From contig JBFWON010000003.1 in NCBI GenBank assembly GCA_050250515.1, forward strand, positions 395 to 64,394: a stretch of DNA of 64,000 nucleotides, given 5' to 3'. The position numbers and the translations under genes were made by a program. The notes below the pieces were generated by a model. The model ran no database searches, was not told the DNA's origin, and saw only the letters and a list, made by a program, of their open reading frames with translations. The DNA is from Bdellovibrionales bacterium (GTDB lineage: Bacteria > Bdellovibrionota > Bdellovibrionia > Bdellovibrionales > UBA1609). Positions 35,871 through 56,079 of the stretch are shown piece after piece (positions within the stretch are counted from its first letter, which is position 1; every line of letters starts with the position of its first letter).

Positions 35871-35910
35871 GCGGGAGTAGCTCAGTTGATAGAGCGTCGC
35901 CTTGCCAAGG
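35871..35910 (+). pseudogene. 5' half of the host tRNA-Gly(GCC), interrupted by the integrated element (contains the attL core 35892-35910)
   Basis: GCGGGAGTAGCTCAGTTGATAGAGCGTCGCCTTGCCAAGG followed by non-tRNA sequence. Its acceptor strand pairs with CTCCCGC of the fragment at 56025-56079. Confidence 0.9.
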
Positions 35911-36033
35911 TTTGAGTGACGAAATCGAAGGGGCGAAAAGGTCTTTGAAATTCTGAAGTTGCACACCGTTCAGTCATTGAAGTGAGTGGAAATCGAAAAC
36001 GATAATCACTGACTTGGATGACTGAAATGATGG

Positions 36034-36109
36034 GCGCGAGTAGCTCAGTTGATAGAGCGTCGCCTTGCCAAGGCGAAGGTCGCCGGTTTGAGCCCGGTCT
36101 CGCGCTCCA
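36034..36109 (+). tRNA. tRNA-Gly(GCC), complete, element-borne
   Basis: 76 nt; acceptor stem GCGCGAG/CTCGCGC; anticodon arm TCGCC-TTGCCAA-GGCGA; T-arm GCCGG-TTTGAGC-CCGGT; encoded CCA. Possible promoter TTGAAG(35977)-N18-GATAAT(36001). Confidence 0.97.
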
Positions 36110-36161
36110 ATTATTTCAATAACTTACGAGATTTTCAGTCATCCGGCCACATCGAGAATTT

Positions 36162-36449
36162 ATGAATTCATCGACAACTGAAACTTCCAAACCAAATGAT
36201 CGACGCATTGACCGCCACTATATTTGGCGGAAGCCCACTATCGTTGACCGGCATCCGGATTTTCTAGCGTATCTCGACACCAAACCGAAATATATCGACG
36301 CGCTTTACGAGCGCCGACACCGCCTTCGTCAGCTTGAATGGAATCGAATCACCACGGAAAATTCTGCGGGCAAGCCTCCAAGAAAACTAATAGACATGGA
36401 TAACCTGAAGGTGACGGCGCGCCTGACGCTGGTCACGCGCTCAGAATAG
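36162..36449 (+). CDS. Small hypothetical protein
   Basis: 95-aa ATG ORF between the tRNA and the integrase stop; no recognisable motif. Confidence 0.35.
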   Translation: MNSSTTETSKPNDRRIDRHYIWRKPTIVDRHPDFLAYLDTKPKYIDALYERRHRLRQLEWNRITTENSAGKPPRKLIDMDNLKVTARLTLVTRSE

Positions 36450-37802
36450 TTCCCTCAATTTTCGTTTAGCCTTAAGTCCCTTGAGAGCATCCATTGCTTT
36501 GTTAAACAGCGGGTCATTTGGATTTTGATCTTCGGCAATGCACGGCCACTTGGCCGCCAACACACATTCCAGGACGAAGCCATACCAGTTCTGCGGAATG
36601 CCCGCGATTCCAAGAGGCATCGCTTCTTCCCACGGGCGTTTATCCTTCACAGGCAGCCTTGCGTAGTGCGCATCCAACATCCTGCTGCTCATGTGTCCGG
36701 CTGTATCCCTGATTTCTTTTTGTGGGAGCGAAGAGTGTGAAAGCCACGTCAGCGCCGTGTGACGAAGGCAGTAGCGATTGAGTCCTTTGGCCGCCCCTCC
36801 CAAGGCATCGTCGATCACCTGTCGAAAGTATTTGGCGCCCGCCTTCGTTCCAATGGGAGAAACCTCACAGCCGGTAACGAGCAAGATGGCGTCAACAATC
36901 GGGGTTCGCGCGACAGAAATTTCCGCCACGCCGTCACGGGCGGTCTTCAATGACTTCAGTTTCCCACCAGTGAAGGTCTGATTGACGTAAATGGAACTTG
37001 GCAAAACTTTAGCGCAACATGGCTCCTGGGGTCGCCAACCAAATATCATCTGCAAAATCAGAGCGCTCCGCAGCTTCCCACCATGCCCGTCGTCTGCATG
37101 AACCAACTCCCTGATGAACTCAACAGCCTCAGTCCGCTCCAAGGGACGCTGCTTGCGGGAATCATACTCAACGCCCTCGTCCTTCAGTTGGGATTCCTGG
37201 GGAATTGTGACGTTCGTAAACAACCCATCCACGTCCTTCACGCCAATTGCCTTGGCGATTGCTTTAATATCGGTTCTCCAACCACGGAGCGTTTCGGGTG
37301 CTTTATGGTTATCTGGATTCATCCAAGACTTAAAACAGGATTCGACAATAGCTGGTGTCAGTGAGTTGCTTGTTCCTGCGTGCCGGGCCAATTCACGGCA
37401 TAGGCCCATCACGTTTGTCTTCGACGAACGGCTGACGTAACGTTGGCAATAGGACTCGCAGTAGGCTCTCAACTTTTTTCCAAGGTCGGTCTGCCCAAAA
37501 TTGAGATCGAACTCTTTTTTTCGTGACGAGTTCCGCTTCAGCGGCGACACCACCCTGGCACGAACCCATTGCTCACGCTCATGCTCCGTGGCCAACTCCG
37601 GAAGGCACTTGGTTAAGTTGTTCCACACAGCTATGGCCGCAGCTTCGGAGAACGCAATGGTCTTTGTAAATTTTCGGTTTTTGCCGCTGCGATAGAACTC
37701 AATCTCGTATCGCGTCTTTTGCTTGTCGTGGACAATGGCCAACTTCAGCCACTGGTGGGCTTTAATGATTTGCCGCCATTTTTGAGTCCGAGTCGATTTC
37801 AT
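36441..37802 (-). CDS. Tyrosine recombinase/integrase
   Basis: Catalytic pattern GWRPQE (R), LKT (K), YCLRH (HxxR variant), AGH and HYA (Y); adjacent to the att site. Confidence 0.9.
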   Translation of the reverse strand: MKSTRTQKWRQIIKAHQWLKLAIVHDKQKTRYEIEFYRSGKNRKFTKTIAFSEAAAIAVWNNLTKCLPELATEHEREQWVRARVVSPLKRNSSRKKEFDLNFGQTDLGKKLRAYCESYCQRYVSRSSKTNVMGLCRELARHAGTSNSLTPAIVESCFKSWMNPDNHKAPETLRGWRTDIKAIAKAIGVKDVDGLFTNVTIPQESQLKDEGVEYDSRKQRPLERTEAVEFIRELVHADDGHGGKLRSALILQMIFGWRPQEPCCAKVLPSSIYVNQTFTGGKLKSLKTARDGVAEISVARTPIVDAILLVTGCEVSPIGTKAGAKYFRQVIDDALGGAAKGLNRYCLRHTALTWLSHSSLPQKEIRDTAGHMSSRMLDAHYARLPVKDKRPWEEAMPLGIAGIPQNWYGFVLECVLAAKWPCIAEDQNPNDPLFNKAMDALKGLKAKRKLRELF

Positions 37803-38030
37803 ATTCCCAGCCCAAAGTCCCTATTCATAGTCTAGGACGTGCCGAAATGGCAAAGTCCCAAAAACATGAGGACCTCACAGCCCTCGCATTCTCATTTCAT
37901 CCGTCTAATCATGATAAGATTTTATCGACCTTAGTCCGCGATAACTAGTAATCCTAGAGCTTGAACGATTTCGGTATAGCCAAGACTTGGCCTCCATACC
38001 GCTATACCGTTTGCCGAAAAACAGACTTGA

Positions 38031-38864
38031 ATGCTTATATTGATAGACCCCAAGAAGAGAAAAGAACTGGAAGAACGGATTGAAAAACTTGGATTTTCAA
38101 AATCGGTATTCCAAGTTCTTGAGGTCATATTCTACCAGGCAATGGCGAAAGACGGCCTAGAATACAAAGACCTCAGACCAGAACATCGTCTATTCGATAG
38201 TCACCTCTCAAATGAGGCCCGTGTTAAGTTGTGTTGTGAATATGTTCGCGATTGGGAGCGCCGAAATGAAGGCGCGACTTTTGGATTTGAACGAATATAC
38301 GTCGATGAATATTTCGACGCCACATCGGCAATGGAGAGATTTCGCGAGTCACTGGAGAATATCGAACGACTCTCCCAACGCCTGACTAAGACAAGCAATT
38401 TCTTGGTCACTAAAGGTGGAAAAAAGACGCTCACCGCTCTAAGAAAAATCTTGGAGGCAAACAAGAATCTCAAACTCAGTGAGTTCACGACATCCCACTA
38501 TTTCACAAGCTATCTCGGCATTTCTAAGGCAATTTACTATGATTTTTTTGAGGCAATGGGCGGAAAGAAAAGAAACAAGTTTAATGAATTCATTGCTTAC
38601 AAAATTGCTCGTGAGCACGATGAGGCATACGCTCCCAAGGATTCGCCGTTTCACGGGAGGCCGGGCATTAAGGAGAAATTCGATAGGGACCTAATAAAAT
38701 CCCGGCTAGTCGCAAACAAAAACTCCTATCATGAATTCGCGGTTAAGCTCCACAATTGGGGCTTGGTAACTCCAACATTTATCCAATATTTGGCGGACAA
38801 TCGAACGAAAGACATTTTTATCGCATCCACTGGCAGTCTGCCAATCGGCGCTAAGACAGCTTGA
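38031..38864 (+). CDS. Hypothetical protein
   Basis: 277-aa ORF in AT-richer island DNA; no motif recognised. Confidence 0.65.
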   Translation: MLILIDPKKRKELEERIEKLGFSKSVFQVLEVIFYQAMAKDGLEYKDLRPEHRLFDSHLSNEARVKLCCEYVRDWERRNEGATFGFERIYVDEYFDATSAMERFRESLENIERLSQRLTKTSNFLVTKGGKKTLTALRKILEANKNLKLSEFTTSHYFTSYLGISKAIYYDFFEAMGGKKRNKFNEFIAYKIAREHDEAYAPKDSPFHGRPGIKEKFDRDLIKSRLVANKNSYHEFAVKLHNWGLVTPTFIQYLADNRTKDIFIASTGSLPIGAKTA

Positions 38865-39178
38865 AACAATCAGTATAGCGATTTTCATTTGGCGATCACG
38901 CCTATACTAGAGCATCCAAATTTCATTCAAAAATTCCATTTCAAAAGTTCCCTGTTATCCTGAATTTGCTAGTGAACCAGACTGAAAGCGAAAGCAGAGG
39001 TGTTGCAAACTAGGATTTGGATTTGAACTGATCGTCAGGGGTGCGTGAGGCCGTACCGTCTTCTCCCCATAAGGTATCGGTCCACCACTCTGGCGACAAC
39101 TAAAAAATTTAACTTAAACCAATTTGGTACTGGCGATGCCAAAGCTGGATTTGTCCGTCCAAAAATGAAAGGAATTTT

Positions 39179-39388
39179 ATGGAAAATAATAAATCGAGCG
39201 AACTGATAGCGTCTTGCGGTGACGAAATCGAACGCCTGCTAATCTCATCCAGTCAGTCCAAGGACCTCTATGCCCCTCTTACAAGGTTAATTGAACTTGC
39301 CGTTGCGTTGAGATCGAAGCTGGTTCTCAATCCTCTGCCATCCATTGTGCCACTGGATATTCGTGAACAAGTTGGAGGTGGGAAATGA
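39179..39388 (+). CDS. Small hypothetical protein
   Basis: AAGGA RBS, 69 aa, 4-bp overlap with the next gene. Confidence 0.55.
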   Translation: MENNKSSELIASCGDEIERLLISSSQSKDLYAPLTRLIELAVALRSKLVLNPLPSIVPLDIREQVGGGK

Positions 39389-40617
39389 GCGATTTACTAA
39401 ATTTGGTATCCAACCCAGTAAGTAGTTACACAGTTCCAGCGATATTCCTCGATGCCATTTCAATATCAATTGGATTTGAGTCAAACGTAAGAGACTACGC
39501 CCGCCATGACCTCCCGTCAGAATTTTCAACAAGGATTGTGAATCCCCATATCCAGTTCGGCAAGAATGGAATTGCAACAGTAAGTGGTGGTTCGATGATT
39601 AGCGGTGGTAAACGTCTTTTATATAAGGCTGTTCATAAAGCCTATCCCAATAGCAGGAGAAAGCATCACAATTTGCTATCGTCATCCGACAAGATCGGCG
39701 TCCTATCCTTATCCAACGGAAAGCCATACCTCTACCAGAACCAACTCCTCTTCAATTTGGTGGATGACCTAAAAGCCCATTGCTTTTCAAGGGAGATCAA
39801 ATTGAACTTCATCGACGGCGATCAGGTCCTTAACGAAGCCTATGCAGTGTTCGTCAGCAAGTTCTTCCCAGAAAAAATCAACTATATAGAATATTGCATG
39901 GAGTTCCCCTTTCAAGTTAGGCCTGATGTTCAGTTATTCCATGTAGCCAATGCGATCTCTGGACTGTACGGTGCCACGGCGGGGATTCATGGCCATCCAG
40001 GCAACACAGCCGATTTACGATGGACCGTGCAGCAATCAACTCTATTGAGCGGTACGGAGTTAATTCAAATCAAGGCTTACCCCAAGGATTTTCCAGACGA
40101 GAATGGCGTAATTGAGCAGGTCTACCGTGTAGAGGTGCGCTTCGTTAAACCACGAGTTCAGCCGAATGAATTTGGGCATGCAAGGGACCTTAAAGAAAAG
40201 GTCGAAATCATCGCGAACGAGGCCGCATTCATTCTCAACGGAATTTATCAAAGATGCCAGGCCCCACGAAAACTCCACGGCTACAAGGAAATCGAGCAGG
40301 CTGTCCTGTGCGTCCTGAAGCGATCTCGCAACGACAAACGTATTGTCGCATTAATTGAGTCTCTTATGGAGTGCGGGGCCTACACGCCCAGCTACCATAA
40401 AACGAATAAGGTTCCCGTCTATCACTTGCGAAAACTTGTGGCCGCAGGGGTATTGAGGGAAATCTACATTTCCAAGCAAAGGAAATCGTACATTCTCGAC
40501 TCAATTGCTGGCGCAACAGATGACCTTCAAAAACACAATGCTTTCAAGCCCTTCCATCCAAATCCGAATAATGAAGTAGTAGTAGGAGAAAAAATCTATG
40601 GCGATCACGAAACCTAA
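39385..40617 (+). CDS. Rep_trans-like replication initiator/relaxase with C-terminal winged HTH
   Basis: Motif order FLDAI / INYIEYCME / IKAYPK / YRVEVRF parallels Rep_trans (D; RxDxAxD; YxK; RxExR). YHLRKLVAAGVL resembles a winged HTH. Confidence 0.55.
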   Translation: MSDLLNLVSNPVSSYTVPAIFLDAISISIGFESNVRDYARHDLPSEFSTRIVNPHIQFGKNGIATVSGGSMISGGKRLLYKAVHKAYPNSRRKHHNLLSSSDKIGVLSLSNGKPYLYQNQLLFNLVDDLKAHCFSREIKLNFIDGDQVLNEAYAVFVSKFFPEKINYIEYCMEFPFQVRPDVQLFHVANAISGLYGATAGIHGHPGNTADLRWTVQQSTLLSGTELIQIKAYPKDFPDENGVIEQVYRVEVRFVKPRVQPNEFGHARDLKEKVEIIANEAAFILNGIYQRCQAPRKLHGYKEIEQAVLCVLKRSRNDKRIVALIESLMECGAYTPSYHKTNKVPVYHLRKLVAAGVLREIYISKQRKSYILDSIAGATDDLQKHNAFKPFHPNPNNEVVVGEKIYGDHET

Positions 40618-40942
40618 ACCTCTGTGCTACCCGCAGCCCACACGCTCGCGCCTGACAATCGACAGCAGCATGGCGAACACGTTGGCCGCCGTGTGGAGCG
40701 GATTTAATCCGTCGTCCGTCGCAATTCCAATTGTACCAAGTGGAAATAACTCGGCCAATTCGCCATCTAATTCAGTGGAAAATAATCGCAATTCAAAACG
40801 CGGGCGTCCTCGGAAGCAATTAAACGCGGAAACAATTCGCCTGATGCTGAAAAACAACTTTACGAGGGCGCAGATCGCCCAGCACTTCGGCGTCAGCAAG
40901 AAGCTTATACAAACCACCCTCAACGGCAAACGCAAGGGCTAA
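40598..40942 (+). CDS. Small HTH DNA-binding protein
   Basis: KRGRPRK followed by TRAQIAQHFGVSKKLI (Hin/Fis-type HTH). Confidence 0.7.
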   Translation: MAITKPKPLCYPQPTRSRLTIDSSMANTLAAVWSGFNPSSVAIPIVPSGNNSANSPSNSVENNRNSKRGRPRKQLNAETIRLMLKNNFTRAQIAQHFGVSKKLIQTTLNGKRKG

Positions 40943-40957
40943 CAGCGGGAGAAAAAT

Positions 40958-41395
40958 ATGTTTAGAGTCAAAACCTACAATGGCACTTTCAAGAAATCGG
41001 AATCTGGTGAACCCCAGGAAGGCGTGTTCTTTCGCCTTGGCGTTCGCGGACAAGATGGAGCCAAGCCAGAGGACTTTCTAATGGATACGGGAATGTTGGA
41101 TGGCCCGCCAGTAGCGATCACTACGGAACTGGCGAAGAAATATAATCTTCAGCCCACGGAACAAGTAAGCCTGACCATCGCCAGCGATACCCCTACGCAA
41201 TTTCCCGTCGCAAAGATTGATCTGGTGATCGAGGACGTTACGCTCAGGCAAATTCCCTGTTTGATTGGGACACCCGTTTCAATGATTGGATATAAGATTT
41301 TCTGTCTAATGGACATTCAATTCCATCGAGGCCAGGTCGTAAAAATCGCGCTAAACAACGACGCCATCAACGAGATGTTCGCCCGCGACAAGTAG
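40958..41395 (+). CDS. Retropepsin-like (clan AA) aspartyl protease
   Basis: FLMDTG catalytic motif, later SMIG motif, 145 aa, GGAGA RBS. Confidence 0.65.
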   Translation: MFRVKTYNGTFKKSESGEPQEGVFFRLGVRGQDGAKPEDFLMDTGMLDGPPVAITTELAKKYNLQPTEQVSLTIASDTPTQFPVAKIDLVIEDVTLRQIPCLIGTPVSMIGYKIFCLMDIQFHRGQVVKIALNNDAINEMFARDK

Positions 41396-41400
41396 GCGCA

Positions 41401-42015
41401 TCAGGTATCAAATCCAAACGATTTCCATGTTTGGAAGCTAAACACCCCAATCCCAATGACGTTCACCGCTGCCGTCAGGCCGACTAAGCTTTCCTTGGAT
41501 AAGTGTTCTATCAAAAATCCGAGCGCCATTAGAATTGCCAAATTCAGAACTATGGCCGAAATCCCAATGACAAGCGCTACCTTCGGTTCCAGTTCAATCT
41601 TCTCAAGCTTCTTCAGCCGTTCCGCGATTACATCAAGTATGGTCTGCAAAGAAGCTGCGTTCACCTGTCGGCTTCCAAAGTGCGTAGTGATGTTGGCTGT
41701 CTGAACCAATCTCCGCTCATGCACTTCGTTCATCAATTTCTTGAAACAGGTCCTGTCGGTTTCAGCCCGATCAATCGTCGGCCTATCAAGGCCCGTTTGA
41801 GCGAGATTCGCGCCAAGGTTGGGAACATTGACGTTATGAAGACTTTGAATCAGTGTTCCCCACCAGTGTCTGGCTTGCGCCCATAGTTCATCAGTTTCCC
41901 GAAGCACAGCCGCCTTTTGATCGCGCACAAGAAGGATATGAAAAACGAGGATTGCCGCCCACACCTGCGCGGCTGTCGATGTCGAGTATAGCAAGACATT
42001 TCCAAGGTCCACCAT
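41401..42015 (-). CDS. Hypothetical membrane protein (3 TM)
   Basis: One N-terminal and two C-terminal hydrophobic helices; AAGGAGG RBS. Confidence 0.75.
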   Translation of the reverse strand: MVDLGNVLLYSTSTAAQVWAAILVFHILLVRDQKAAVLRETDELWAQARHWWGTLIQSLHNVNVPNLGANLAQTGLDRPTIDRAETDRTCFKKLMNEVHERRLVQTANITTHFGSRQVNAASLQTILDVIAERLKKLEKIELEPKVALVIGISAIVLNLAILMALGFLIEHLSKESLVGLTAAVNVIGIGVFSFQTWKSFGFDT

Positions 42016-42022
42016 TTCCTCC

Positions 42023-42316
42023 TTAAGCTGCGAACGCCTTTGCCAATTGAAAGCGGATTTCTTGCCGAACCCACAGGTTGTAAATTCGCCAGATGTTATC
42101 TCTTGACGCGGCGGATGCCCATAATTCCAGAATCACATCACCATCACGTTCCATCACTGAAGCAATGGCCGGATGCTTGCGCCTATTGGTGAATTCAACC
42201 TTCAGCGATGTGGCATAACCAGAATAGAAATTCCGGTCGTGAATTGAGAATATCAATTGGACCGTGGTTCCACACGCAACGGCCTTCATTGAAAAGCTGT
42301 CACACTTGAGTTCCAT
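42023..42316 (-). CDS. Small hypothetical protein
   Basis: 97 aa, tightly packed in a three-gene run. Confidence 0.55.
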   Translation of the reverse strand: MELKCDSFSMKAVACGTTVQLIFSIHDRNFYSGYATSLKVEFTNRRKHPAIASVMERDGDVILELWASAASRDNIWRIYNLWVRQEIRFQLAKAFAA

Positions 42317-42320
42317 AGAA

Positions 42321-42530
42321 CTATCTATACTTCTTTTTAATTGAACTAAGGCCTATCCGAAGCGCCTCCAAAATGATTGCGCTCTTGGAAATCGCCTTCT
42401 CGTCAGCCTTACGCCTCTTGTTCACGCCTTCATGGAGGGCAGCAAGTTCCTGCTCCAACCACGTCTTGTCCTTTGAATCGAGCCGAAATGCAAAAATCGG
42501 CGGCGGCGTCTTCTTTTGAAACTTGAGCAT
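42321..42530 (-). CDS. Small ribbon-helix-helix-like DNA-binding protein
   Basis: IFAFRL beta-strand, helix, then ISKSAIILEAL helix; GGAGG RBS. Confidence 0.55.
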   Translation of the reverse strand: MLKFQKKTPPPIFAFRLDSKDKTWLEQELAALHEGVNKRRKADEKAISKSAIILEALRIGLSSIKKKYR

Positions 42531-42638
42531 GGCCTAAAGCCCTCCAATCCTCACTAAAACGTTATCATAAAATGTTAAACATTTACAGTTAGACAAATAT
42601 AGCGCAACGTGTTACGTTTAATTATGGCGGGAGGACTT

Positions 42639-43127
42639 ATGCAAGGCCAATTAAACGCACTGGTGTCGTTTATAGACGGTTTTATAACCCAAGGCGGAGT
42701 AGACCTAGCGGAGGCCAAAAAGTCGCATGTTAAGGACGGCCAGACCGAATTCGAGTATCGGTTCTTTTGCACCCCAGGGCCATTGTTTGAGGCATTCGTC
42801 TATTGGTACACTGTGGGCAATACTCCGCACCCATTCATTTGCATTCAAATCCACTTATGCGACTTGGATTCGGCAAAAGAGCCAGAATTGCTGGTTCAGC
42901 GGCTACTGGAAGACAATGCAGCCTTAGCTCTTCCAATCAGATTTTCGCTCGTTGATGGCAGCGTCTGCCTCACCGCCAGATTTCAAGTGGACGCGGTCGA
43001 TCTTGAATATGCCAAGAACATCATTGAGCACGTTCTGCATCATAGCTTTTCGGCCCTTAACGCTATCTCCAACCAGCATGGCGTTCAGTCCACACTCGAA
43101 GCCGCGCTCCGAACAGACCTGCACTGA
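42639..43127 (+). CDS. YbjN/CesT-like chaperone-fold protein
   Basis: LLVQRLLEDN...IRFSLVDGSVCL pattern. Start refined to ATG 42639 (GGAGG RBS); the track ORF starts at 42609. Confidence 0.65.
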   Translation: MQGQLNALVSFIDGFITQGGVDLAEAKKSHVKDGQTEFEYRFFCTPGPLFEAFVYWYTVGNTPHPFICIQIHLCDLDSAKEPELLVQRLLEDNAALALPIRFSLVDGSVCLTARFQVDAVDLEYAKNIIEHVLHHSFSALNAISNQHGVQSTLEAALRTDLH

Positions 43128-43135
43128 GGCTGAAG

Positions 43136-43810
43136 ATGAGCGATGGCGACCAACTACCATCACAAAAGTCCGCACTAATGCCGCCTAAGCGTTGTGCGAT
43201 TTATGTCAGAATTTCCACACAGGAACAAAATAGCTCCCTCCAGGTTTCAGAATTGACCGAATTTGTCCGTAGGCGCACAGGATGGGTAGTCCATCATATC
43301 TACGAAGACAAAAGAACTGGAACGAATGGTAATCGTCCTCAACTCAAAGCATTGCTAAAGGCCGCCAGGCTACGCGAAATCGACATTGTTCTCTGCTGGA
43401 AATTGGACCGATGGTTTCGATCACTGAAAGAAATCGTGGTGACGCTTCAAGAATTGCAGGAACTTGGTATCGAGTTCGTGAGTCTGAAAGATAACATCGA
43501 CCTTACGACAAGCACTGGCAAGTTGATGATGCATATCGTGGCGGCTTTTTCCGAGTGGGAGGTATCCATCCTGAAGGAGCGCGTTCGGAGTGGTCTGATT
43601 TCCGCCCGCGCAAGGGGCGTAACGTTGGGACGGCCCCAAATAGTCACTCCGGAGATTTCAGATCAGGTAGTCGCCCTTCGGAATCAAGGACTGTCCATAC
43701 GAGCGATTGAACGGACATTGAATAGGGCCGTTAGCAAAACATCCATAGAGCGAATCTTGCGAGCGCGTGGATGTACCAAAAATGGTTCCAACGGGGGGAG
43801 TGGAGAATGA
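43136..43810 (+). CDS. Serine recombinase (resolvase/invertase family)
   Basis: IYVRIST (catalytic Ser), RPQL, KLDRWFRS, LGRP plus C-terminal HTH. Confidence 0.95.
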   Translation: MSDGDQLPSQKSALMPPKRCAIYVRISTQEQNSSLQVSELTEFVRRRTGWVVHHIYEDKRTGTNGNRPQLKALLKAARLREIDIVLCWKLDRWFRSLKEIVVTLQELQELGIEFVSLKDNIDLTTSTGKLMMHIVAAFSEWEVSILKERVRSGLISARARGVTLGRPQIVTPEISDQVVALRNQGLSIRAIERTLNRAVSKTSIERILRARGCTKNGSNGGSGE

Positions 43811-43893
43811 CCATATCTTTCCTCATCTCAATCCATTTGCATTTGGGGCTGACGAGGAATCCGTCTTTAAGAAAAGTATTCGGGACAGGTCAT

Positions 43894-46910: not shown

Positions 46911-47285
46911 TTGGATAGACTCTCGATAATCTTAGCGATGATTGTCTTCACTACGACCCCACGGGCGCTGGCGTCTGGATGGTGTGAATCTAGTGCCGAT
47001 ACCAAGAAGGCCAAAGTCAGCTTCCACAAGACCTGCAAGGGTCACTACGAAGCCCAACTTATCCTAGCCGACTACTCGTTGGGCAAGACAGGCTCATCAC
47101 CTTCGCTTCAGAAGCACTCGGATGACATATTCAATTTTTGCCTCTGTGTTGCTAACAAATTCGCCGTGCAGAGCACGGCCAATGAAAATTGCGAATTCTC
47201 GGTAACGGACGCAATCCCTTGGGAAAAACTCGAAATAGCATGGCAAAAGACATGCGGGAGGATGAAATGGAGTTCAAATCAATAG
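46911..47285 (+). CDS. Secreted Cys-containing hypothetical protein
   Basis: Signal peptide, six Cys, 124 aa. Confidence 0.55.
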   Translation: MDRLSIILAMIVFTTTPRALASGWCESSADTKKAKVSFHKTCKGHYEAQLILADYSLGKTGSSPSLQKHSDDIFNFCLCVANKFAVQSTANENCEFSVTDAIPWEKLEIAWQKTCGRMKWSSNQ

Positions 47286-47926: not shown

Positions 47927-48621
47927 AAACCTTCAGATTTCCCATTCTGTTGCTTGCGGCGGCCCTGCCTTTGCCGAAGGTGATGGCAGAAGCCGCTGGC
48001 GGCAGAGTAATTACATTAACGTGCATTGGAACCGGAGCATCTTCTTCAGTTGCGCGACAGAGTGCCATTAGCGATTGTAAACGGGACGCGGCCAACTTTC
48101 TTTCCAAATCGACTGAGGTCAGGTCGCTTACGGTCGAAACCGAAGAGCGAGTTTCATACCACTCGTCAGTACAGGAAGACCTGACTGTTAAAAATTTGAA
48201 TTGTGACCCTATCAATGAGGCCGTGCAAAAAATTGACGATTCATATGAAGTTAGGCTTCAGTGTCGCTTCGACCTTTCAAAGGCGGAAGTCGCTGAAACA
48301 GTGAAAGGGCCAAAGAGGCAACGGGCCAACGCGAGCTTTTTCGACTCCAGCGGGCGCAACGTTGCCACTGCCAATGCCGGTGAATTTATCCAGAGTGACA
48401 AATATCCCATTTCAATTTCTTCAATACCCATGTGTACCGAGGTTCTCATTAGGGGTGAAAAACCCCGAAGTGTCAAATGCACCGCGAATCCAACCGTATT
48501 GAATATGGAACCTACTGATGTGGAAATAATCATTCGGTCGAGCGGATTTATTCCAAGGAAGTTCAAAGTAAGCCCCATGGATAGAGAGAGGAGCTTTCAT
48601 GTCACTCTGGAGCAGAACTAG
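47923..48621 (+). CDS. Secreted hypothetical protein
   Basis: Signal peptide, 4-bp overlap with the upstream gene, GTG...ARQSA motif reminiscent of LPP20-like domains. Confidence 0.7.
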   Translation: MKTFRFPILLLAAALPLPKVMAEAAGGRVITLTCIGTGASSSVARQSAISDCKRDAANFLSKSTEVRSLTVETEERVSYHSSVQEDLTVKNLNCDPINEAVQKIDDSYEVRLQCRFDLSKAEVAETVKGPKRQRANASFFDSSGRNVATANAGEFIQSDKYPISISSIPMCTEVLIRGEKPRSVKCTANPTVLNMEPTDVEIIIRSSGFIPRKFKVSPMDRERSFHVTLEQN

Positions 48622-49624
48622 AATATTTTTGGTTTTTCCGCTATTAATCTCATGCGCGTCCACCGTGGACCGAAAACAGGCAGCGGCGCCAACCTATAGA
48701 CTTCCCACGCCAATAATAACCCTGCCGATAGCAATTCAGAGTTGGCTCAGTCAACCTTCCAACTCTGATAAGAGCGCATCGGAAATCGCCAACGGCATTA
48801 AAAGTAGAATGTGCTCGGATGGCCGAGCCAAGTGGAATCCAACCTATAGAGTTTCGGCATTTATTCCAAAACCGCCGTCTGGGACTGCGCTCGATGAAGC
48901 TACTGCACTCCGTGAGCGGTACGCCGCACGAATACGAAAATATTTAAAGTCCGACTTGCTCTTCAATATTTCCTATGACCCAAAGAAAAACATTCCCCGC
49001 CACAATCTAGGCGAGATTGATGTCGCGCACGGCTACCAAGTTTTTCCGCAATCCTTTGAGAAGATTCCTGCTTTTTTCCAGAGCCAGGAAACCACTAACC
49101 CAGACAAATATAGATTCCAAGTGACACAATATGACCCCATCCTTGTTGTCTTTCAAAGTAGTGGGAAAATGATTCTCGTTCCAAGCGACAATAGCTTTAG
49201 CAGGTACGAGAATTATAGGTCCGGATTTCTAGTGGAGGTTGTCAAAGACGCATGCGCACCCACGGGAGGAAATTGCGTTACCACCATGAACTACGTTATG
49301 GACCTACAGCTATTGCGAGACGGCTATGCGCTATTCATGTCCAAGGAAGAACAGATGGCCACATTTGAAAATCTGAAAAGCCATATGGAATTTCCCAGCA
49401 AAGACTACTTCGGCGAAACCTACAATCCGGGCGAAGCGCCAAAGTTTACCATCGGGCGTCTTCTTCAGGAGTCTGACGAATTTTGGAGAGCGTATTTTTC
49501 GTACTTTACCACGCTGAAGGAATCGCCAGGAGCCGACCCCAATTTTGTGGCCTATGACGTATCGCTGAATCTGGACACGTTCTGCAAATATGGGCGCCCC
49601 AAAGTTGACCTAGTATCGAATTAG
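48599..49624 (+). CDS. Hypothetical lipoprotein
   Basis: Lipobox LISC, 341 aa. Confidence 0.72.
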   Translation: MSLWSRTRIFLVFPLLISCASTVDRKQAAAPTYRLPTPIITLPIAIQSWLSQPSNSDKSASEIANGIKSRMCSDGRAKWNPTYRVSAFIPKPPSGTALDEATALRERYAARIRKYLKSDLLFNISYDPKKNIPRHNLGEIDVAHGYQVFPQSFEKIPAFFQSQETTNPDKYRFQVTQYDPILVVFQSSGKMILVPSDNSFSRYENYRSGFLVEVVKDACAPTGGNCVTTMNYVMDLQLLRDGYALFMSKEEQMATFENLKSHMEFPSKDYFGETYNPGEAPKFTIGRLLQESDEFWRAYFSYFTTLKESPGADPNFVAYDVSLNLDTFCKYGRPKVDLVSN

Positions 49625-49749
49625 CCAAAACCAACGCTCACTTTCACCTCCATTTCACAGCCGCCGCTCCGGACAACTTGTTCGACTTTCGGATGTCCAC
49701 GCGGCTGTAACGTGTCCCGCTTCCAGCGGAGACGTGGTACGGTGTTGGC

Positions 49750-50172
49750 ATGGACACCTTGACCAAAGCCCAGCGTAGCGAGCGAATGAAGCTTGTGAAA
49801 GCAAAGGGCACCAAACCTGAGAAGTTGGTAGCAAATATTTTGAAGTCAATGCGGGTCAAGCCCCACACTCATGACAGTTCTGTGCCGGGCAAACCGGATT
49901 TTTCTTTTTCTAAGCGGAAGAAGGCAGTTTTTGTTCATGGCTGCTTCTGGCATAGGCACGCGTCGTGTCACAACGGAAGAAGACTGCCTAAGTCTCGGCT
50001 GGATTTCTGGGAAAATAAATTGGATAAAAATAGAAGGCGTGATGCGCGAATTCTTCGTCAACTCAATCGCTTAGGTTGGAGCTATTTGGTTATTTGGGAA
50101 TGCCAACTGGCCGCTCCAGATAGATTGGAGAAACGATTGCGCAGGTTTTTGGCATTGGGGGACCGACATTGA
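49750..50172 (+). CDS. vsr: Very short patch repair endonuclease Vsr
   Basis: MD..T..QRS..M, TKPE, GKPD, FVHGCFWH and IWEC motifs. Confidence 0.96.
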   Translation: MDTLTKAQRSERMKLVKAKGTKPEKLVANILKSMRVKPHTHDSSVPGKPDFSFSKRKKAVFVHGCFWHRHASCHNGRRLPKSRLDFWENKLDKNRRRDARILRQLNRLGWSYLVIWECQLAAPDRLEKRLRRFLALGDRH

Positions 50173-51407
50173 ATTCAGTTGAGCTTTTCACGGGCGCGGG
50201 TGGTCTTGCGCTGGGGGTTTCCGCCAGCGGATTCAAGCATCTTGCTGTTGTCGAATGGGACCATGATGCTTGCAATACGGTCCGACTAAATCAAGAGCGC
50301 GGAAATACCCTCGTTGGGTCTTGGCCTCTTCATGAAATGGATGTTGCCCAGTTCAATTTTGATGGAATTGAGCAGGAAGTTGATCTGTTGGGCGGTGGTC
50401 CGCCATGTCAGCCCTTTTCACTCGGTGGAAAGCATAAAGGCCACACCGACGAACGAAATATGTTTCCGCAGGTTTTTCGTGCGGCACGTTCGCTTCGTCC
50501 TAAAGCCATTCTAATTGAAAATGTAAAAGGGCTGGCGCGTGCGTCGTTCAAAGACTACTTGGACTACATTCTTCTTCAGTTGGGTACTCCAGAAATTCAG
50601 AGAAAAAGAGACGAGGAATGGCGCGATCATGCCGCTCGTTTAGTCAAAGTGAAGTCCAACAAAGTAAAAACTGATCTTGAATACGATGTCCAAGTAAAGC
50701 TGATAAACTCCGCTGACTATGGTGTTCCTCAGCGTCGTGAGCGAGTTATCATTGTCGGATTTCGACGAGATTTGGGCGTGAAATGGACTTATCCTCCGCC
50801 CACACATTCGCATGAAGCGCTATTGTATTCACAGTGGGTCACGGGCGAGTATTGGGAGCGCCATGGAGTTCCTAAGAAGCATCGTCCGTCCGCCCCTAGC
50901 CGTTACAAAGGAAAGATTGAAAATCTAAAGACATTGCTGATGCCTCCAGCGGAGCTTCCATGGGTCACTGTCCGAGATGCGCTTACTGGAATGCCATGCC
51001 CTGAGCGGGACAAAGAAAAGAAGGAATTTGAGAACCATCATTTCAATCCCGGCGCAAGGTCGTACCCCGGTCACACAGGAAGCCCACTCGATGAGCCAGC
51101 GAAGACTCTGAAGGCGGGGGACCATGGAGTGCCAGGCGGAGAAAACATGCTTCTGCGCCCGGATGGAACCATTCGTTACTTCACGGTTCGTGAGTGTGCC
51201 CGCCTTCAAACTTTTCCAGACAATTATGTGTTCACTGGAGCTTGGTCGGAAGCCATGCGCCAGCTTGGAAACGCCGTGCCCATGAGACTTGCTGAAATAA
51301 TCGCAACTCGAATCAAGGAAGAATTAGTCGCCGCGAAGAATCGTGGCAAATCAACACGCGGAAGGAATCGCAGCTTTGAAGAACCAACCATACAATCCCC
51401 TGGATAA
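50169..51407 (+). CDS. DNA (cytosine-5)-methyltransferase of a type II RM system
   Basis: FTGAGG (motif I), GGPPCQPFS (IV), ENV (VI), PQRRER (VIII), RECARLQTFPD (IX), GNAV (X). Confidence 0.97.
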   Translation: MNSVELFTGAGGLALGVSASGFKHLAVVEWDHDACNTVRLNQERGNTLVGSWPLHEMDVAQFNFDGIEQEVDLLGGGPPCQPFSLGGKHKGHTDERNMFPQVFRAARSLRPKAILIENVKGLARASFKDYLDYILLQLGTPEIQRKRDEEWRDHAARLVKVKSNKVKTDLEYDVQVKLINSADYGVPQRRERVIIVGFRRDLGVKWTYPPPTHSHEALLYSQWVTGEYWERHGVPKKHRPSAPSRYKGKIENLKTLLMPPAELPWVTVRDALTGMPCPERDKEKKEFENHHFNPGARSYPGHTGSPLDEPAKTLKAGDHGVPGGENMLLRPDGTIRYFTVRECARLQTFPDNYVFTGAWSEAMRQLGNAVPMRLAEIIATRIKEELVAAKNRGKSTRGRNRSFEEPTIQSPG

Positions 51408-52017
51408 GCATAATCTTGGCAAAAGCATCGCGGAGTCGATGCTTGCCAGCGACGTACAACCCTTACCACCATCTAATTTTGAGGGCGCCGGAATCTACGC
51501 GATCTACTATGTCGGCGACTTCACACCCTACAAGGCACTGAAAGAAAAAAATCTGAAAGAAAATTATTCGGCCCCAATCTATGTGGGCAAAGCCGTGCCA
51601 GCGGGCGCTCGTCGTGGTGGATTGGGACTCGATGCGAAGCCAGGTAAAGTTTTGTTCAATCGGCTTGCCGACCATGCCGCCAGCATTGAGCAAGCTAAGA
51701 ATCTAAAGTTAAGGGACTTCAAATGTCGGTATCTTACAGTGGATGACATCTGGATTCCGCTTGGCGAATCCCTTCTGATCGAGATGTTTCATCCTCTCTG
51801 GAACCATAAGATTGATGGTTTTGGAAACCATGACCCTGGCGCAGGAAGACACAAGGGTAAGCGTTCGGCATGGGATGTAATTCATCCTGGAAGAAGTTGG
51901 GCCGATAGGCTTCAACCTAACCCCAAGAGTCAGGAGGCATGGTTGAAAGAAGTGAAGGAATTTATTGCCAAAGGGCGTAGGCCAGAAACGACGATTAAGA
52001 TACCCAAGGGCGTATGA
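51343..52017 (+). CDS. Eco29kI-family (GIY-YIG) restriction endonuclease
   Basis: YNPLD, GAGIYAIYY, PIYVGKA, WIPLGE and GFGNHDPG signatures. Confidence 0.93.
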   Translation: MANQHAEGIAALKNQPYNPLDKHNLGKSIAESMLASDVQPLPPSNFEGAGIYAIYYVGDFTPYKALKEKNLKENYSAPIYVGKAVPAGARRGGLGLDAKPGKVLFNRLADHAASIEQAKNLKLRDFKCRYLTVDDIWIPLGESLLIEMFHPLWNHKIDGFGNHDPGAGRHKGKRSAWDVIHPGRSWADRLQPNPKSQEAWLKEVKEFIAKGRRPETTIKIPKGV

Positions 52018-52856
52018 GGTGCATGATTATGACGACGTTGATATTGAGTATCTTTTTTGCTTCCCACTTCGCTGGCGCGCAAATAAGTCAATTGGAAAAC
52101 ATTTATCTGGGCATCAAGGCCGCAAAATTTGCCGAGGCGTCTAGGGCATTCCAAGCCAGTAAGTGTGATGAAGATGAAGTTTGTTTCGAGGGAAAAGATC
52201 AACAGGGCAAGGAATTGAAAATACTGCCTTCCGAAGTTCGACTGGACATTGCACTATTCAAATCCATTAAGTTCAACTGCGATCAGACCACGAACAAGGG
52301 GTGGGAATCGTTCCAAACCGGCTGCTACCAGGGAATTGAAGTAGCAAGACAGCAGGGGAAAATTGAGCGAATAAAGAGAATTTCCGGAGTTGATTTGTCT
52401 GCGTTTTTTTCTGCCTATGATCGGAGACATGATGAATTGAAGGCGGAGGAACAACGGAAGGGCGAGGAGCGCGACAAGATAGCACAGAAGAAAAGGGCCG
52501 CCGAAGAGGCAGAAAGAAAACAGAGGGCAGCCTCAGTTCAATTAAAAAATTCTCCAGAAGGAAAGAAGTGCCAGGCGATGTCGGAAGCCGCTTCAAGCAA
52601 AAAAATGTATTTGATGTGGGAACAGAACTTAAATTCCATTAAACGAGATGCTCAAGACGCTGGGGTTTTTACCGCAAAAATGCAGGCGGATATTGACCAG
52701 TCACTTTCTATGAGGCGCGCCTTTTTAGCTCAGAAAGAGAATGCGGAGAAAAAGATAAAGGCAATGGTTCAAGTGCAGGTGACAGCCGCGCGTTGCAAAG
52801 AAATTCTTCCGAATTTTGGGGCAAGCATGGCCGACAAATATCAGGGAGAGGAATAA
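52014..52856 (+). CDS. Secreted coiled-coil hypothetical protein
   Basis: Signal peptide; charged coiled coil; 4-bp overlap with the REase stop. Confidence 0.7.
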   Translation: MRCMIMTTLILSIFFASHFAGAQISQLENIYLGIKAAKFAEASRAFQASKCDEDEVCFEGKDQQGKELKILPSEVRLDIALFKSIKFNCDQTTNKGWESFQTGCYQGIEVARQQGKIERIKRISGVDLSAFFSAYDRRHDELKAEEQRKGEERDKIAQKKRAAEEAERKQRAASVQLKNSPEGKKCQAMSEAASSKKMYLMWEQNLNSIKRDAQDAGVFTAKMQADIDQSLSMRRAFLAQKENAEKKIKAMVQVQVTAARCKEILPNFGASMADKYQGEE

Positions 52857-53559
52857 AATCAAGGGGGGTGTCGAAGCGGACCAAAGCCCAGGAAATGTAA
52901 ACAAATCATTCTTGTATTCCGATATTTGTTTAGCCCCAAGAACATTGAATCCAAGTGGAACCTACAGAGGCCAGGCAAGCGGCGTGAAAATTAAAGCCCT
53001 ATTCAACAGCAAAGCGATCATACCCGTTTCTCTGATTGGCTACCTAATAATTGCGACAATCTTGGCTTATTCCAACAGCGGCACGATGGAGGAGTTAAAG
53101 TCGAATTTCGGTCACTATCTCCATGCTGGACTTAACGAACTTTCGATCTGGTTATTTATCCTGTCCTTGTCATGGATTCTCGATGCGAAACAGGAGATTG
53201 TACGATTTGGCAGGAAATCGAAGTGGTTTAAGATTTCGCAGTTGGTGGGCCAAATCATCCATAAGGATGCGACATTCGGAAGCGACTCAATCTATGAACT
53301 GTACACTGAATTGGTTTCCATCAATCCAAACGCGACAGTTAATCCGGGTACAAATCACAATTCCACCAATATGAACATCGCCAACATTCAGGAGCACCTA
53401 GTCCAATATCTGAGCAATGTCCTGTTCCACGCCAGCTTCTCAAAAAATTACCGAAGCAAGAAAGTGTCCTCAGAGGGAGATTTTTGGACTATGCTTCACC
53501 TCTTAAGAGCAAAGGTACAGAGTGAAGTGATCGAAGGGAGTGGCGGCGATGCCCATTAG
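52816..53559 (+). CDS. Hypothetical membrane protein (2 TM)
   Basis: Two hydrophobic helices. The true start is probably GTG 52984. Confidence 0.55.
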   Translation: MGQAWPTNIRERNKIKGGVEADQSPGNVNKSFLYSDICLAPRTLNPSGTYRGQASGVKIKALFNSKAIIPVSLIGYLIIATILAYSNSGTMEELKSNFGHYLHAGLNELSIWLFILSLSWILDAKQEIVRFGRKSKWFKISQLVGQIIHKDATFGSDSIYELYTELVSINPNATVNPGTNHNSTNMNIANIQEHLVQYLSNVLFHASFSKNYRSKKVSSEGDFWTMLHLLRAKVQSEVIEGSGGDAH

Positions 53560-53983
53560 TAAAGAGAAGTCCGCGCAAATCGTTGACCAAATTTACAAGC
53601 ACATGGACAAAATTTCCGTACATGGAGGAATCGCGCCTGAAATCGCTGGCAGGGAGACGCAGCGCTTTCCTGGGGGGCGAGATGATTCTTTATTCAGCTA
53701 TAGCTTTCATTACAAAGGGAAGCAGTTCGTAATTAAGGCCCTCCCAAAAATGTTTCGACTGATAAACGGAGCTTCCTTTGAACTCTTCCTCATTGAACAG
53801 TCTGGAGCCACTAGTCACGACGCCGAACAACTCTATCCGCCCATTCCTGAAACCGTTTGGGATGGCGCCCGCTACGACAGCCATATAGATGGAAAGCTTG
53901 AAAAGATATATGAGCATGTTCGCAAAGAGAAAGAGAACCTAGTTGACAGAAAACTTGGTGAAAATTTCTTTGATGAAGAATGA
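53540..53983 (+). CDS. Hypothetical protein
   Basis: 147-aa ORF. Likely start is ATG 53549 after GGGGAG. Confidence 0.6.
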   Translation: MAAMPISKEKSAQIVDQIYKHMDKISVHGGIAPEIAGRETQRFPGGRDDSLFSYSFHYKGKQFVIKALPKMFRLINGASFELFLIEQSGATSHDAEQLYPPIPETVWDGARYDSHIDGKLEKIYEHVRKEKENLVDRKLGENFFDEE

Positions 53984-53994
53984 CCCCAAGCTTT

Positions 53995-54513
53995 TCAGGT
54001 AGAAAAAATCATGGAAAACAAGGCCACTGTGTAGCCGACAAAAAAGAGCCAGGGCAACGACAACTCAATATGCGTTAACGGCCAATAGACTCTTCTGTCG
54101 GTTCCCGACTTCAAAAGAAGTTCCCACTCGGTTTTGCCATACGGTCGCGCCGGTAGTTTTTCTTCCAGTACGCCAATGATTTTAAATTTGGCGCCATTTA
54201 ACTGCTTGTATGAAATTATAAGTCTCCACCAGAGGAACAGTTCCAGGCAAAGAACAAAGTAGGGGAAAAACAACAGGTACGGTTGTCGAAACGAAATTCC
54301 CTTTTCAATGATGGCAGGTCCCGCTGACAAAACCGCGCCATTTATGCTCAGGAAAAAGGCGTTTGCCACGTCCCGCCTGGCGCTGATCTTGTCAGCCATT
54401 TCGACATACAGTTTGTATTGCTCCAGGATTGTTGCCTGGCAATCAGCTTTCCCCGCGAACTTCGCAAGCACCGCCTGATTCCAAAGGTGATCTGATATTT
54501 TGTCCTTGCTCAT
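53995..54513 (-). CDS. RipA-family (octameric membrane protein-like) putative pore-forming effector
   Basis: LEQYKLYVEMADKISARR..AN.FFLSIN, W..LI.SYKQLN.AKF.II..LE..LP and EW motifs; TM helices. Start refined to 54513 (ATGA overlap with the TIR stop); the track ORF starts at 54555. Confidence 0.75.
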   Translation of the reverse strand: MSKDKISDHLWNQAVLAKFAGKADCQATILEQYKLYVEMADKISARRDVANAFFLSINGAVLSAGPAIIEKGISFRQPYLLFFPYFVLCLELFLWWRLIISYKQLNGAKFKIIGVLEEKLPARPYGKTEWELLLKSGTDRRVYWPLTHIELSLPWLFFVGYTVALFSMIFST

Positions 54514-54902
54514 CGGCTGCCGTGAATTAGCAATTTCAAATTGTCCCATGTCCAATCATACATCTTGTCCGCAGCACTCGCCGTCGTCGGTTTGGTGCAG
54601 ACTTTGTCCTTGTATCCGGTCAAAAGAAAATAAGGAACGCTTTGGTCTTTGGCCGCTTGCAACTCGAACGCGACGCCCGTCGCCGTATGGGTGTTCGCTC
54701 CGCAGATCACCGCGACAACATCGGCCCGGCCAACTCTCGCTTTTACCTTAGTCTTCCAGTCACCTTGCAGTGGCTCCTTCACTGATCTGTCGATAATATC
54801 GAACGGCGAGTCGGTATGTTTCGCTTGTCCGGCGAACAGATTTCTCAACGCTTCGTCATTGTCGTAGTCAAAACTGATAAACACATTTTTCTTGCTTGCC
54901 AT
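54510..54902 (-). CDS. TIR domain protein (ThsB/MTH538-like, DUF1863)
   Basis: VFISFDYDND, DRSVKE, GVAFELQAA (putative catalytic Glu), YDWTW. Start refined to ATG 54902 (GAGGG RBS); the track ORF starts at 54968. Confidence 0.9.
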   Translation of the reverse strand: MASKKNVFISFDYDNDEALRNLFAGQAKHTDSPFDIIDRSVKEPLQGDWKTKVKARVGRADVVAVICGANTHTATGVAFELQAAKDQSVPYFLLTGYKDKVCTKPTTASAADKMYDWTWDNLKLLIHGSR

Positions 54903-54910
54903 TTTCCCTC

Positions 54911-55492
54911 CTAAATTCCGCGAGCAATGGCCTGCTCGATTGCAGATGTAATTTGGGCTGGTTCCCAACCAGCTATCGGTGCGCCAATTTCTTTCAAAAC
55001 GGGCGGCGTGCGTCCACGGGATTCCTTTAGTCGCACGCCACAGACCGGAATCCTGTGCGCGATTGCCGTTTCAACTTCCCATTCCACCCAATCTCTCCAA
55101 GCAGTTCCGTTGCCCACCATACAAATGAGCACATCCGACGCTAGAATCTTGGACTTGAGCGCCTGTCGGATATAATTGCTGCTATCGGACCTCACTGCCC
55201 GCCTAGAAAGGGAGTCGTCCACATCGAACTGAAGGTTTGGATTTGTTAGCATTAACCGGAAGCCCTGAACAAGCCGCAGGTCGTTTGAGTGAAAGCTAAT
55301 GAACGCCTTCCTGCGGCGAGGATGGTACGACAGGTGCCCGGCGTATGCCCGCCTAAGTTCGGAAAGGGACTCGTAGCCCCGGCTGGCTAATAAATTGCCC
55401 AGACGCTGATCATCCCGAACATTGAGATCAAGGCCATATGTGGCCTCGACCGTTTGAATCTTGGTGTCGCCCCGCTTAGCTCTGAACATCAA
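54911..55492 (-). CDS. TIR domain protein (ThsB-like) with an extra ~55-aa N-terminal domain
   Basis: KAFISFH, YIRQAL..KI..SDVLICMVG..T...WVEWEVE (catalytic Glu). N-terminal RGDTKIQTVE..YGLDLNVR.D..LG.LL extension. Confidence 0.9.
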   Translation of the reverse strand: MMFRAKRGDTKIQTVEATYGLDLNVRDDQRLGNLLASRGYESLSELRRAYAGHLSYHPRRRKAFISFHSNDLRLVQGFRLMLTNPNLQFDVDDSLSRRAVRSDSSNYIRQALKSKILASDVLICMVGNGTAWRDWVEWEVETAIAHRIPVCGVRLKESRGRTPPVLKEIGAPIAGWEPAQITSAIEQAIARGI

Positions 55493-55513
55493 TCCTGGAC
55501 CAGCTTCAGGCTT

Positions 55514-55717
55514 CTATTTTTTTCTGTTGTAAGGACTTTGATTTGTCGGCTTCAGGGAAATTCCCTCTTGTGAAGCGCGATTGCGAACGGCTTCAGGTGT
55601 CCGTCCCAGTTTTAGGCCGATGACCCGCGTGGGCGTGTTTTGGTTCGCCAGCTTTTGAAGCTGCGAAACCTCGCCTTGACTCCAACCCTTGCCCGAATTC
55701 CTGGTGCTCTTAGACAT
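55514..55717 (-). CDS. Small basic Myb/SANT-like HTH protein
   Basis: WSQGEVSQL..LA..NTPTRVIGLKLGRTPEAVRNRA; poly-G RBS; first gene of the TIR operon. Confidence 0.75.
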   Translation of the reverse strand: MSKSTRNSGKGWSQGEVSQLQKLANQNTPTRVIGLKLGRTPEAVRNRASQEGISLKPTNQSPYNRKK

Positions 55718-56024
55718 GAATCCCCCCCCTTATGAAATATGGACCCACAAACTATGGGATTGAGCATGGCCCCCGTCAAGGCGATGGGAAAATTTAAACA
55801 CTCATCTGTCCCGTCCCTTAAACCCACTGCGGGATTTGAGAATCGTGGCCCGATGCTGGGTTTACCCTTGAAAATGACGCGCCGTTATGAGACGATTAAG
55901 ATGTTCCTTCCATCTCCCCAAAAATAAGCCTCTACAACTCGTTTAGTTTACCGTGGCCCATAGGCATTGCTTCGCCCTGGCGTCACACGCACATCCCCAA
56001 TCGACCTTGAAATTCAGTGTCCGT

Positions 56025-56079
56025 GAGCGTCGCCTTGCCAAGGCGAAGGTCGCGGGTTTGAGCCCCGTCTCCCGCTCCA
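56025..56079 (+). pseudogene. 3' part of the host tRNA-Gly(GCC) (contains the attR core 56025-56043)
   Basis: GAGCGTCGCCTTGCCAAGGCGAAGGTCGCGGGTTTGAGCCCCGTCTCCCGCTCCA; lacks the 5' acceptor strand and most of the D-arm. Confidence 0.92.

Follow-up and report, generated by a model that had tools for sequence, protein, structure and literature searches.

The stretch of DNA considered here, hereafter the window, comprises 64,000 nucleotides of contig JBFWON010000003.1 (positions 395 to 64,394) from the assembly GCA_050250515.1 of a Bdellovibrionales bacterium. It contains an island of 20.2 kb located within a host gene for tRNA-Gly(GCC). As assessed by register alignment, this gene is left as two pieces, which bound the island at its left and right attachment sites (attL and attR). 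Close to the left end, a complete tRNA-Gly(GCC) is found, faced by the gene of a tyrosine integrase. The cargo includes candidate defence genes (Table 1). The island is present in single copy and has a GC content of 48.8%, against 50.8% genome-wide.

Table 1. Features of the island and its surroundings, in window positions
Feature	Position	Strand	Basis and remarks
Host promoter-like site TTGACG-17-TATGAC before the native tRNA position	35824..35852	+	Loose scan
Host tRNA-Gly(GCC) 5′ piece, nt 1-40	35871..35910	+	Register alignment; diverges from nt 41
attL core, 19 bp across the anticodon loop	35892..35910	+	Register alignment; divergence of the X3 contig at 35892
Spacer of 123 bp, likely P′ arm; TCAGT at 35970, 36008 and 36021	35911..36033	+	Motif enrichment, hairpin
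Island promoter-like site TTGAAG-18-GATAAT (9/12), upstream of the replacement tRNA	35977..36006	+	Consensus match only
Complete replacement tRNA-Gly(GCC), allele C4-G69/C51-G63	36034..36109	+	ARAGORN, Rfam, register alignment
Candidate site resembling that of integration host factor (IHF), right after the tRNA	36114..36126	+	Consensus match
Open reading frame (ORF) of 95 aa between tRNA and integrase	36162..36449	+	Kept in 7/7 loci of this integrase family
Tyrosine integrase, 453 aa, frame open, facing the tRNA	36441..37802	-	PHROG_1 E 1.6e-16; PF00589 just below cut-off
ORF of 410 aa, weak replication-initiator lead	39385..40617	+	Atlas Phage_CRI clusters at 0.84, lead only
Small serine resolvase/invertase	43136..43810	+	PF00239 E 2.5e-38
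Type II restriction-modification cassette: Vsr, C5 methylase, Eco29kI-family endonuclease	49750..52017	+	Family matches
Two ThsB-like TIR genes, then an 8xMP membrane-protein gene	53995..55492	-	Family matches
attR: core (56025-56043) and host tRNA 3′ piece to nt 76	56025..56079	+	Register alignment

The sequence common to attL and attR is limited to nt 22-40 of the tRNA, that is 19 bp, and a tRNA is formed at neither junction. This arrangement had been proposed in a preliminary description made from the letters of the window, and every coordinate given there for the halves and the core was recovered by register alignment. The gapped pattern of the left junction has one match in the window and none in 100 shuffles. 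The 5′ piece occupies the native position of the tRNA, directly 3′ of a PQQ-repeat gene, where relatives hold an intact tRNA. TTGAC-type sites are found in most relatives at the place corresponding to the host promoter-like site, which in the window stays under the threshold of a stricter scan. When the two host halves are joined, they give a well-formed tRNA-Gly(GCC), as had been predicted, with a cloverleaf fold. Seven of the 33 relatives examined have an intact tRNA with exactly the joined sequence, and the halves are therefore real host sequence.

The complete tRNA, which starts 123 bp past the left piece, departs from the joined host halves at positions 4/69 and 51/63 only; both pairs are changed from G-C to C-G, in agreement with the two compensatory swaps described previously. 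Both alleles fold as a cloverleaf with every stem paired. A hybrid of the island 5′ part and the host 3′ part has a C4·C69 mismatch, and the reverse hybrid has G4·G69. Among the genes of the 33 relatives, 28 carry G4-C69/G51-C63, including the 7 that are identical to the joined halves; by sequence, the outer halves are of the host's ancestral-type allele. In four other relatives (G002, G006, G008 and G017), the native tRNA is identical to the island copy. A single-gene tree groups G002, G006 and G008 in one clade (starred), with a sister, G004, carrying the host-type allele and with G000 just outside; G017 is placed elsewhere with weak support. The preliminary description had considered that relatives carrying both this allele, GCGCGAG, and the 5′ fragment at the locus would speak against it. 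The allele is indeed native in these four genomes, and no 5′ fragment lies upstream of the tRNA in any of them. A native allele without the fragment points to a donor lineage and leaves the description standing. The inner tRNA thus equals the native allele of the sister clade, which is the likely donor. In G009, the only tRNA-Gly(GCC) detected (C281:790-865, L048) has a C4·C69 mismatch as well as A at position 48, and lies behind a promoter-like site. It could be an island-left hybrid or an assembly chimera, being known from one assembly.

The replacement tRNA is the sole tRNA called by ARAGORN in the window. A second tRNA-Gly(GCC) gene was sought genome-wide, as had been recommended, in an assembly of 177 contigs that is 96.45% complete. 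The island copy is the sole complete one among 38 ARAGORN calls and 37 Rfam tRNA calls, and BLAST returned no further copy. GGC and GGU together make up 60.7% of the Gly codons in 953 long ORFs. Three promoter-like sites occur in the region, for 0.8±0.9 in shuffles, and a motif scan detected no terminator-like site between those at 35824 and 35977 and the replacement tRNA. No RNA dataset containing the locus is listed. In view of this gene inventory, the island tRNA is likely needed by the cell, as its only decoder of GGC and GGU, while the island is integrated.

Homologous integrases were then surveyed, another suggestion of the preliminary description, with two profiles. One, A3, derives from the window integrase; the other, A1, represents a second integrase family and was built from G010 and G085. 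No similarity between A1 and A3 was found by BLASTP or by profile comparison, the second profile having two rows only. With A3, hits were obtained in 6 of 401 genomes of the phylum, in 2 of 384 of the order and at 3 loci of a metagenome collection, one of which is the same as that of G040; A1 was found in 11/401 and 26/384 genomes, respectively. Forty loci were examined (8 A3, 32 A1). Not included in the layout counts are nine loci offering less than 1 kb of sequence, four tRNA-less A1 loci of 2.4-4.5 kb and the A3 locus of G040, which has a 3′ half only. Where a full tRNA faces the integrase, the host 5′ half lies upstream in four of six A3 loci (G000 and G274 at Gly-GCC, G312 and G319 at Ala-GGC) and in 14 of 19 A1 loci (Gly-GCC, Val-UAC, Val-GAC and Ala-GGC). 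The A1 count comes from 20 rows with a full tRNA, the duplicate L074, which is G553, being merged and G610 being added via a loop search. The loci are not independent, since G085, G046 and G553 represent one element group; their tRNAs are near-identical, and their hosts belong to three families with differing 5′ halves of their own. In all 18 split loci, the replacement tRNA is intact, encodes CCA and matches the anticodon of the disrupted gene. One of them, at G000:C2:33854-51600, is a second split-and-replace island, at tRNA-Val(UAC), with an A1-family integrase containing one internal stop. A near-identical counterpart is found at G040:C3, where the host 5′ half differs.

The crossover site can be approached through the core and its arms. 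In the five cases where both ends were computed (including G010), plus G319 from the same output, the shared cores span 10-27 bp. All include the 7-nt loop, and nt 30-38 form the common overlap. In G085, G046, G319 and at G000:C2, a single contig contains both tRNA halves. For G085 and G046, when the attachment site of the free element (attP) is rebuilt from the left core, 14 of its 15 arm positions are palindromic, and the two genomes differ by a compensating change. Rebuilt via the internal tRNA, it shows 7/15 and 6/15. In addition, in 1,704 nt of att-proximal DNA taken from seven A3 family members, 22 copies of the motif TCAGT are counted, for 3.4 expected. As the motif was picked after inspecting the sequences, the shuffle test covers any 5-mer with at least two G/C; none of 1,000 shuffles reaches 22. 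In the window, three copies are in the spacer, two of them forming an inverted repeat, two are past the internal tRNA and one is at 56014 in the P arm. In G274 and G312, every site found is in the spacer; G319 has a 28-nt spacer and five copies past the tRNA. No copy was found in the 120 nt following the tRNA in G339 and L082, which have no 5′ half. These arm-like repeats may be regarded as putative arm-type sites. IHF-like sites were also considered and were rejected as evidence, with 1.7 hits per kb window-wide.

Metagenomic data give a further indication. In run X3, which comes from a different study than the best-matching runs, a contig of 298 nt matches 35892-35952 exactly, and its other 237 letters, upstream of 35892, do not match. 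In a host tRNA, the match should have continued across A21; the contig therefore resembles attP or a tandem-array junction and gives a hint of one or the other. Runs X3 and X4 contain pieces of the island with 99-100% identity and do not cover the host genes at 33500-35635. This pattern is in keeping with recent movement, with the reservation that absent contig cover proves nothing. Considering the attP palindromes of the relatives, the arm-like repeats and the metagenomic contig, the left core at 35892 appears to be the best attL. The preliminary description had made the same choice, on the argument that excision through the internal copy would leave a C·C mismatch. The choice is retained, whereas the argument is weak because G009 carries a C4·C69 tRNA. 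Altogether, it is highly probable that the island splits the host tRNA-Gly(GCC) at the anticodon loop and carries, in its arm region, a replacement that is likely the sole decoder of GGC and GGU.

Several observations weigh against this reading. The empty site was not seen, and the gene to the right of attR is non-syntenic in the stretches of 15 relatives. The attP of the window is not palindromic (7/15), and neither G010 nor the Val islands show a palindrome. The words shared by the P and P′ arms of the window are at chance level, 20-28% of random island segments matching equally well. The X3 contig has a depth of about 3, and its upstream letters are known only as non-matching. Of the support for the junctions sought in other data, the core-spacer boundary was found exactly in X3, and no listed X1 contig spans a whole junction. 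The assembly is incomplete and contains neither Asp nor Gln tRNAs; a second Gly(GCC) gene could be unassembled. One intact tRNA without a 5′ half is found in two of six A3 and five of 19 A1 loci. Finally, two TCAGT motifs and the IHF-like site lie past the internal tRNA, so that a crossover there is possibly usable.

These last features may lead one to imagine that the internal tRNA functions as attL, in an ordinary island repairing the gene by its 3′ end, the 5′ half and the 123-bp spacer being debris left by a separate event. The distance from the full tRNA to the integrase, 244-397 bp, is the same with and without the 5′ half, one genome (G549) carries the element of G085 without the spacer, and the mismatched tRNA that such a crossover would leave exists in G009. 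However, the internal tRNA is of the foreign allele at both its ends whereas the outer halves match each other, and the alleles are starkly different in G274, G312 and G319. The palindromes of G085 and G046 are obtained with the left core only, the arm-like motifs of G274 and G312 are confined to the spacer, and in the X3 contig, core and spacer are adjoined by DNA that is not a tRNA. Moreover, a separate accident would be needed at each of 18 loci. Debris is, for these reasons, a very improbable explanation.

If the left core is accepted as attL, it may still be asked whether the island tRNA is a dispensable spare, either because another Gly(GCC) gene escaped assembly or because tRNA-Gly(UCC), whose gene is present on C70, reads all four codons. 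The gaps in the assembly mentioned above leave room for the former. Four-way codon reading by U34 is exceptional in bacteria. Furthermore, the Gly(GCC)-type 5′ pattern has a single match in 39 of the 42 matching family genomes; in the others, G010 and G085 match twice through the split layout itself, and the second match of G128 has another anticodon. The conservation of an intact, CCA-encoding and anticodon-matched replacement in all 18 split loci also argues against a spare, and this explanation is judged very improbable. As for an assembly artefact joining reads of two strains or species at the tRNA repeat, the genome is metagenome-assembled and near-repeats of 36 and 55 bp break contigs, but the chance is close to negligible because the three-part layout recurs with unrelated spacers at 17 other loci, the core-spacer junction is found exactly in a run of another study and the base pairs that covary are correctly partitioned among the copies.

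The integrase keeps R257, R347, H348 and Y380, which are invariant across 14 homologues in the alignment. Its structural model has a pLDDT of 84.7, and the best fold match is full-length lambda integrase (E 4.4e-7). The 95-aa ORF gave no family or Atlas match and is a candidate directionality factor. The homologue search with the 410-aa ORF was empty. The run of two TIR genes and 8xMP may represent a Thoeris-like defence operon whose effector would be of the pore type; no ThsA partner of the TIR genes was found. The cargo also includes a helix-turn-helix regulator. When the 26 island ORFs were compared to Pfam and PHROGs, no capsid, terminase, portal, tail or lysis match was obtained, in line with the non-phage nature proposed in the preliminary description. 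No relaxase or conjugation match was found either with these 26 ORFs or with 13 ORFs searched against NCBIfam, many ORFs having no family. Among viral contigs, the gapped layout pattern had no hit and the integrase profile matched none of 36 candidates. By gene content, the island would thus be a non-phage element, possibly a satellite, rather than a temperate phage. Outside the island, a 717-aa ORF and an overlapping 129-aa ORF (29423-31962, + strand) have no Pfam match.

Other loci illustrate further arrangements. A search of 185,579 genomes with the layout pattern gave seven hits; two are true (L074 and L078) and five correspond to tandem or damaged tRNA copies. The pattern, which covers only Gly(GCC) at a spacing of 135-195 bp, missed G085 and G046 and is thus uninformative on absence elsewhere. 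In two Ferrimonas species (L075 and L076, ~10001-10175), a tRNA-Gly with an altered T-arm lies directly upstream of an intact copy, which is another layout. The A3 element at G040:C10:662-11101 has a 3′ tRNA half only at the tRNA place, and the arm before this half is A1-like. On the same contig (46108-58334) are found an A1 integrase and, as judged by eye, conjugation-like and metal-transport-like genes; the arrangement suggests insertion of a second element into the tRNA of the first. Multi-island arrays at tRNA-Val(GAC) occur at G610:C74, G610:C86 and G615:C3:186587-248495. At one junction in G610:C74, a non-tRNA arm, the core, a spacer and a full tRNA of another allele follow one another, as in a tandem insertion. 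In G020 (L041 after 2233), G014:C98:598-750, G007 and G017, a short sequence following the tRNA or its 3′ piece resembles the start of elements of the window's family, with an IHF-like site and, in G014, a small ORF. An integrase of the family was not found there, and these sequences are likely element remnants.

The strategy has precedents in phages. tRNA-dependent lysogeny was defined, and its requirement proved, in mycobacteriophages (PMC10865867; Guerrero-Bustamante & Hatfull 2024), and it is restated in PMC12429752. The actinobacteriophage examples include Fionnbharth/K4, cluster L, Gaia and BrutonGaster (PMC10865867), which bears out the statement, in the preliminary description, on compensation by a same-isotype tRNA. 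Two Sinorhizobium meliloti Lo5R7ANS-like prophages inactivate and replace tRNA-Leu(UAG) (PMC11476347), and the Lactobacillus prophage Lj965 also inactivates and replaces a tRNA (cited in PMC10865867). As in tRNA-dependent lysogeny, the island has a lambda-like tyrosine integrase, no tRNA at attL or attR and an element tRNA of the same anticodon, and close relatives repair the gene in the ordinary way. The core reported for the phages is 8-17 bp, against 19 bp in the window island and 10-11 bp in several relatives. In contrast to these phages, no phage structural genes were matched in the island. Its tRNA is in the attachment arm at a distance of 123 bp from the core; in the phages, the tRNA either overlaps gene 37 or is part of a tRNA region. 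Its allele is 96% like that of the host and identical to that of the sister clade, unlike the actinobacteriophage cases. The phylum also differs, as do the isotypes (Gly-GCC, Ala-GGC, Val-UAC and Val-GAC), and the requirement is here a putative one. With the Sinorhizobium and Lj965 prophages, the island shares disruption of the gene by integration at a central core and a foreign cognate tRNA on the element, but those are intact prophages, and the Sinorhizobium replacement is ~81% like the host gene.

Ordinary islands restore the gene at a junction (Islander; Hudson, Lau & Williams, PMC4383910). Those using the anticodon-centred site A resemble the present one by their tyrosine integrase, crossover in the loop, displaced 3′ fragment at the far end and defence cargo. 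They differ in that the attP of the window has no 3′ half at its core, so that no junction restores the gene. A search for a full tRNA plus a 3′ fragment would, judging by the published algorithm, likely call the island, with its left end 163 bp too far in. By analogy, the island works like tRNA-dependent lysogeny, outside both the phage definition and that of the ordinary island with its repaired junction. No non-phage or Bdellovibrio case was found in the literature searched, subscription papers and supplements being outside the search. Judged by their titles, the 22 records naming tRNA-dependent lysogeny deal with phages or with unrelated matters. Among the papers found, splitting and replacement is published for phages only; the mechanism itself is not new.

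The following scheme may be envisaged. The integrase would exchange strands in the 7-nt loop, with TCAGT-type arm sites flanking the core, and the replacement tRNA would thereby be built into the arm region of attP. Transcription of this tRNA would start from the island promoter-like site at 35977, from the host promoter at 35824 through the dead 5′ half, or from both, and RNase P would free the tRNA. Precise excision would rejoin the host gene; the dependence would therefore last only while the island is integrated and would not amount to an addiction module. The tRNA may have been acquired in a sister lineage of the same genus. The benefit would be host range, as a 3′ half used for repair has to fit the 5′ half of the host. 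A match of ~10 bp in the loop would suffice and no mismatched hybrid tRNA would be made; in the present case, ordinary 3′-half repair with the island allele would have given G4·G69.

The relation between the split and the single-tRNA states deserves attention. In an unrooted A1 tree (FastTree; 18 rows, without G493), the four rows with a single tRNA do not group together and require four changes. The element of G549 is the same as that of G085 (82-86% DNA identity), and its host tRNA runs straight into the sequence that follows the internal tRNA of G085. In G582, contigs C116 and C155 have the same host upstream sequence, one with an intact tRNA-Val and the other with the split-and-replace layout, suggesting that both states occur within one population. 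The tree and the G549 locus would fit a recurrent collapse of the duplicated 5′ half, a recurrent gain or a collapse during assembly. More tentatively, and with the balance leaning against it, splitting and replacing may be the default of two unrelated integrase families from non-phage islands in predatory Bdellovibrionota, ordinary-looking members being derived and allele-swapping. In such a scenario, the duplicated 5′ half would recombine, the spacer and its arm sites would be lost and the island would be grounded. If true, each collapse cycle could swap the allele of an essential host tRNA between species, which would explain the island allele native in G017 and the mismatched tRNA of G009.

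Whatever the relation between these states, the highly probable reading of the island as one that splits and replaces tRNA-Gly(GCC) would mean that a strategy proven only in phages is also used by defence islands that are not phages, in another phylum and with the spare tRNA placed within the attachment arm. Tools for island mapping probably set such ends in the wrong place and take the foreign tRNA for a gene of the host. Integration into many hosts through a match of ~10 bp would offer a testable reason for the occurrence of island-borne tRNAs. In the present genome, two essential decoders, Gly-GCC and Val-UAC, would be supplied by islands.

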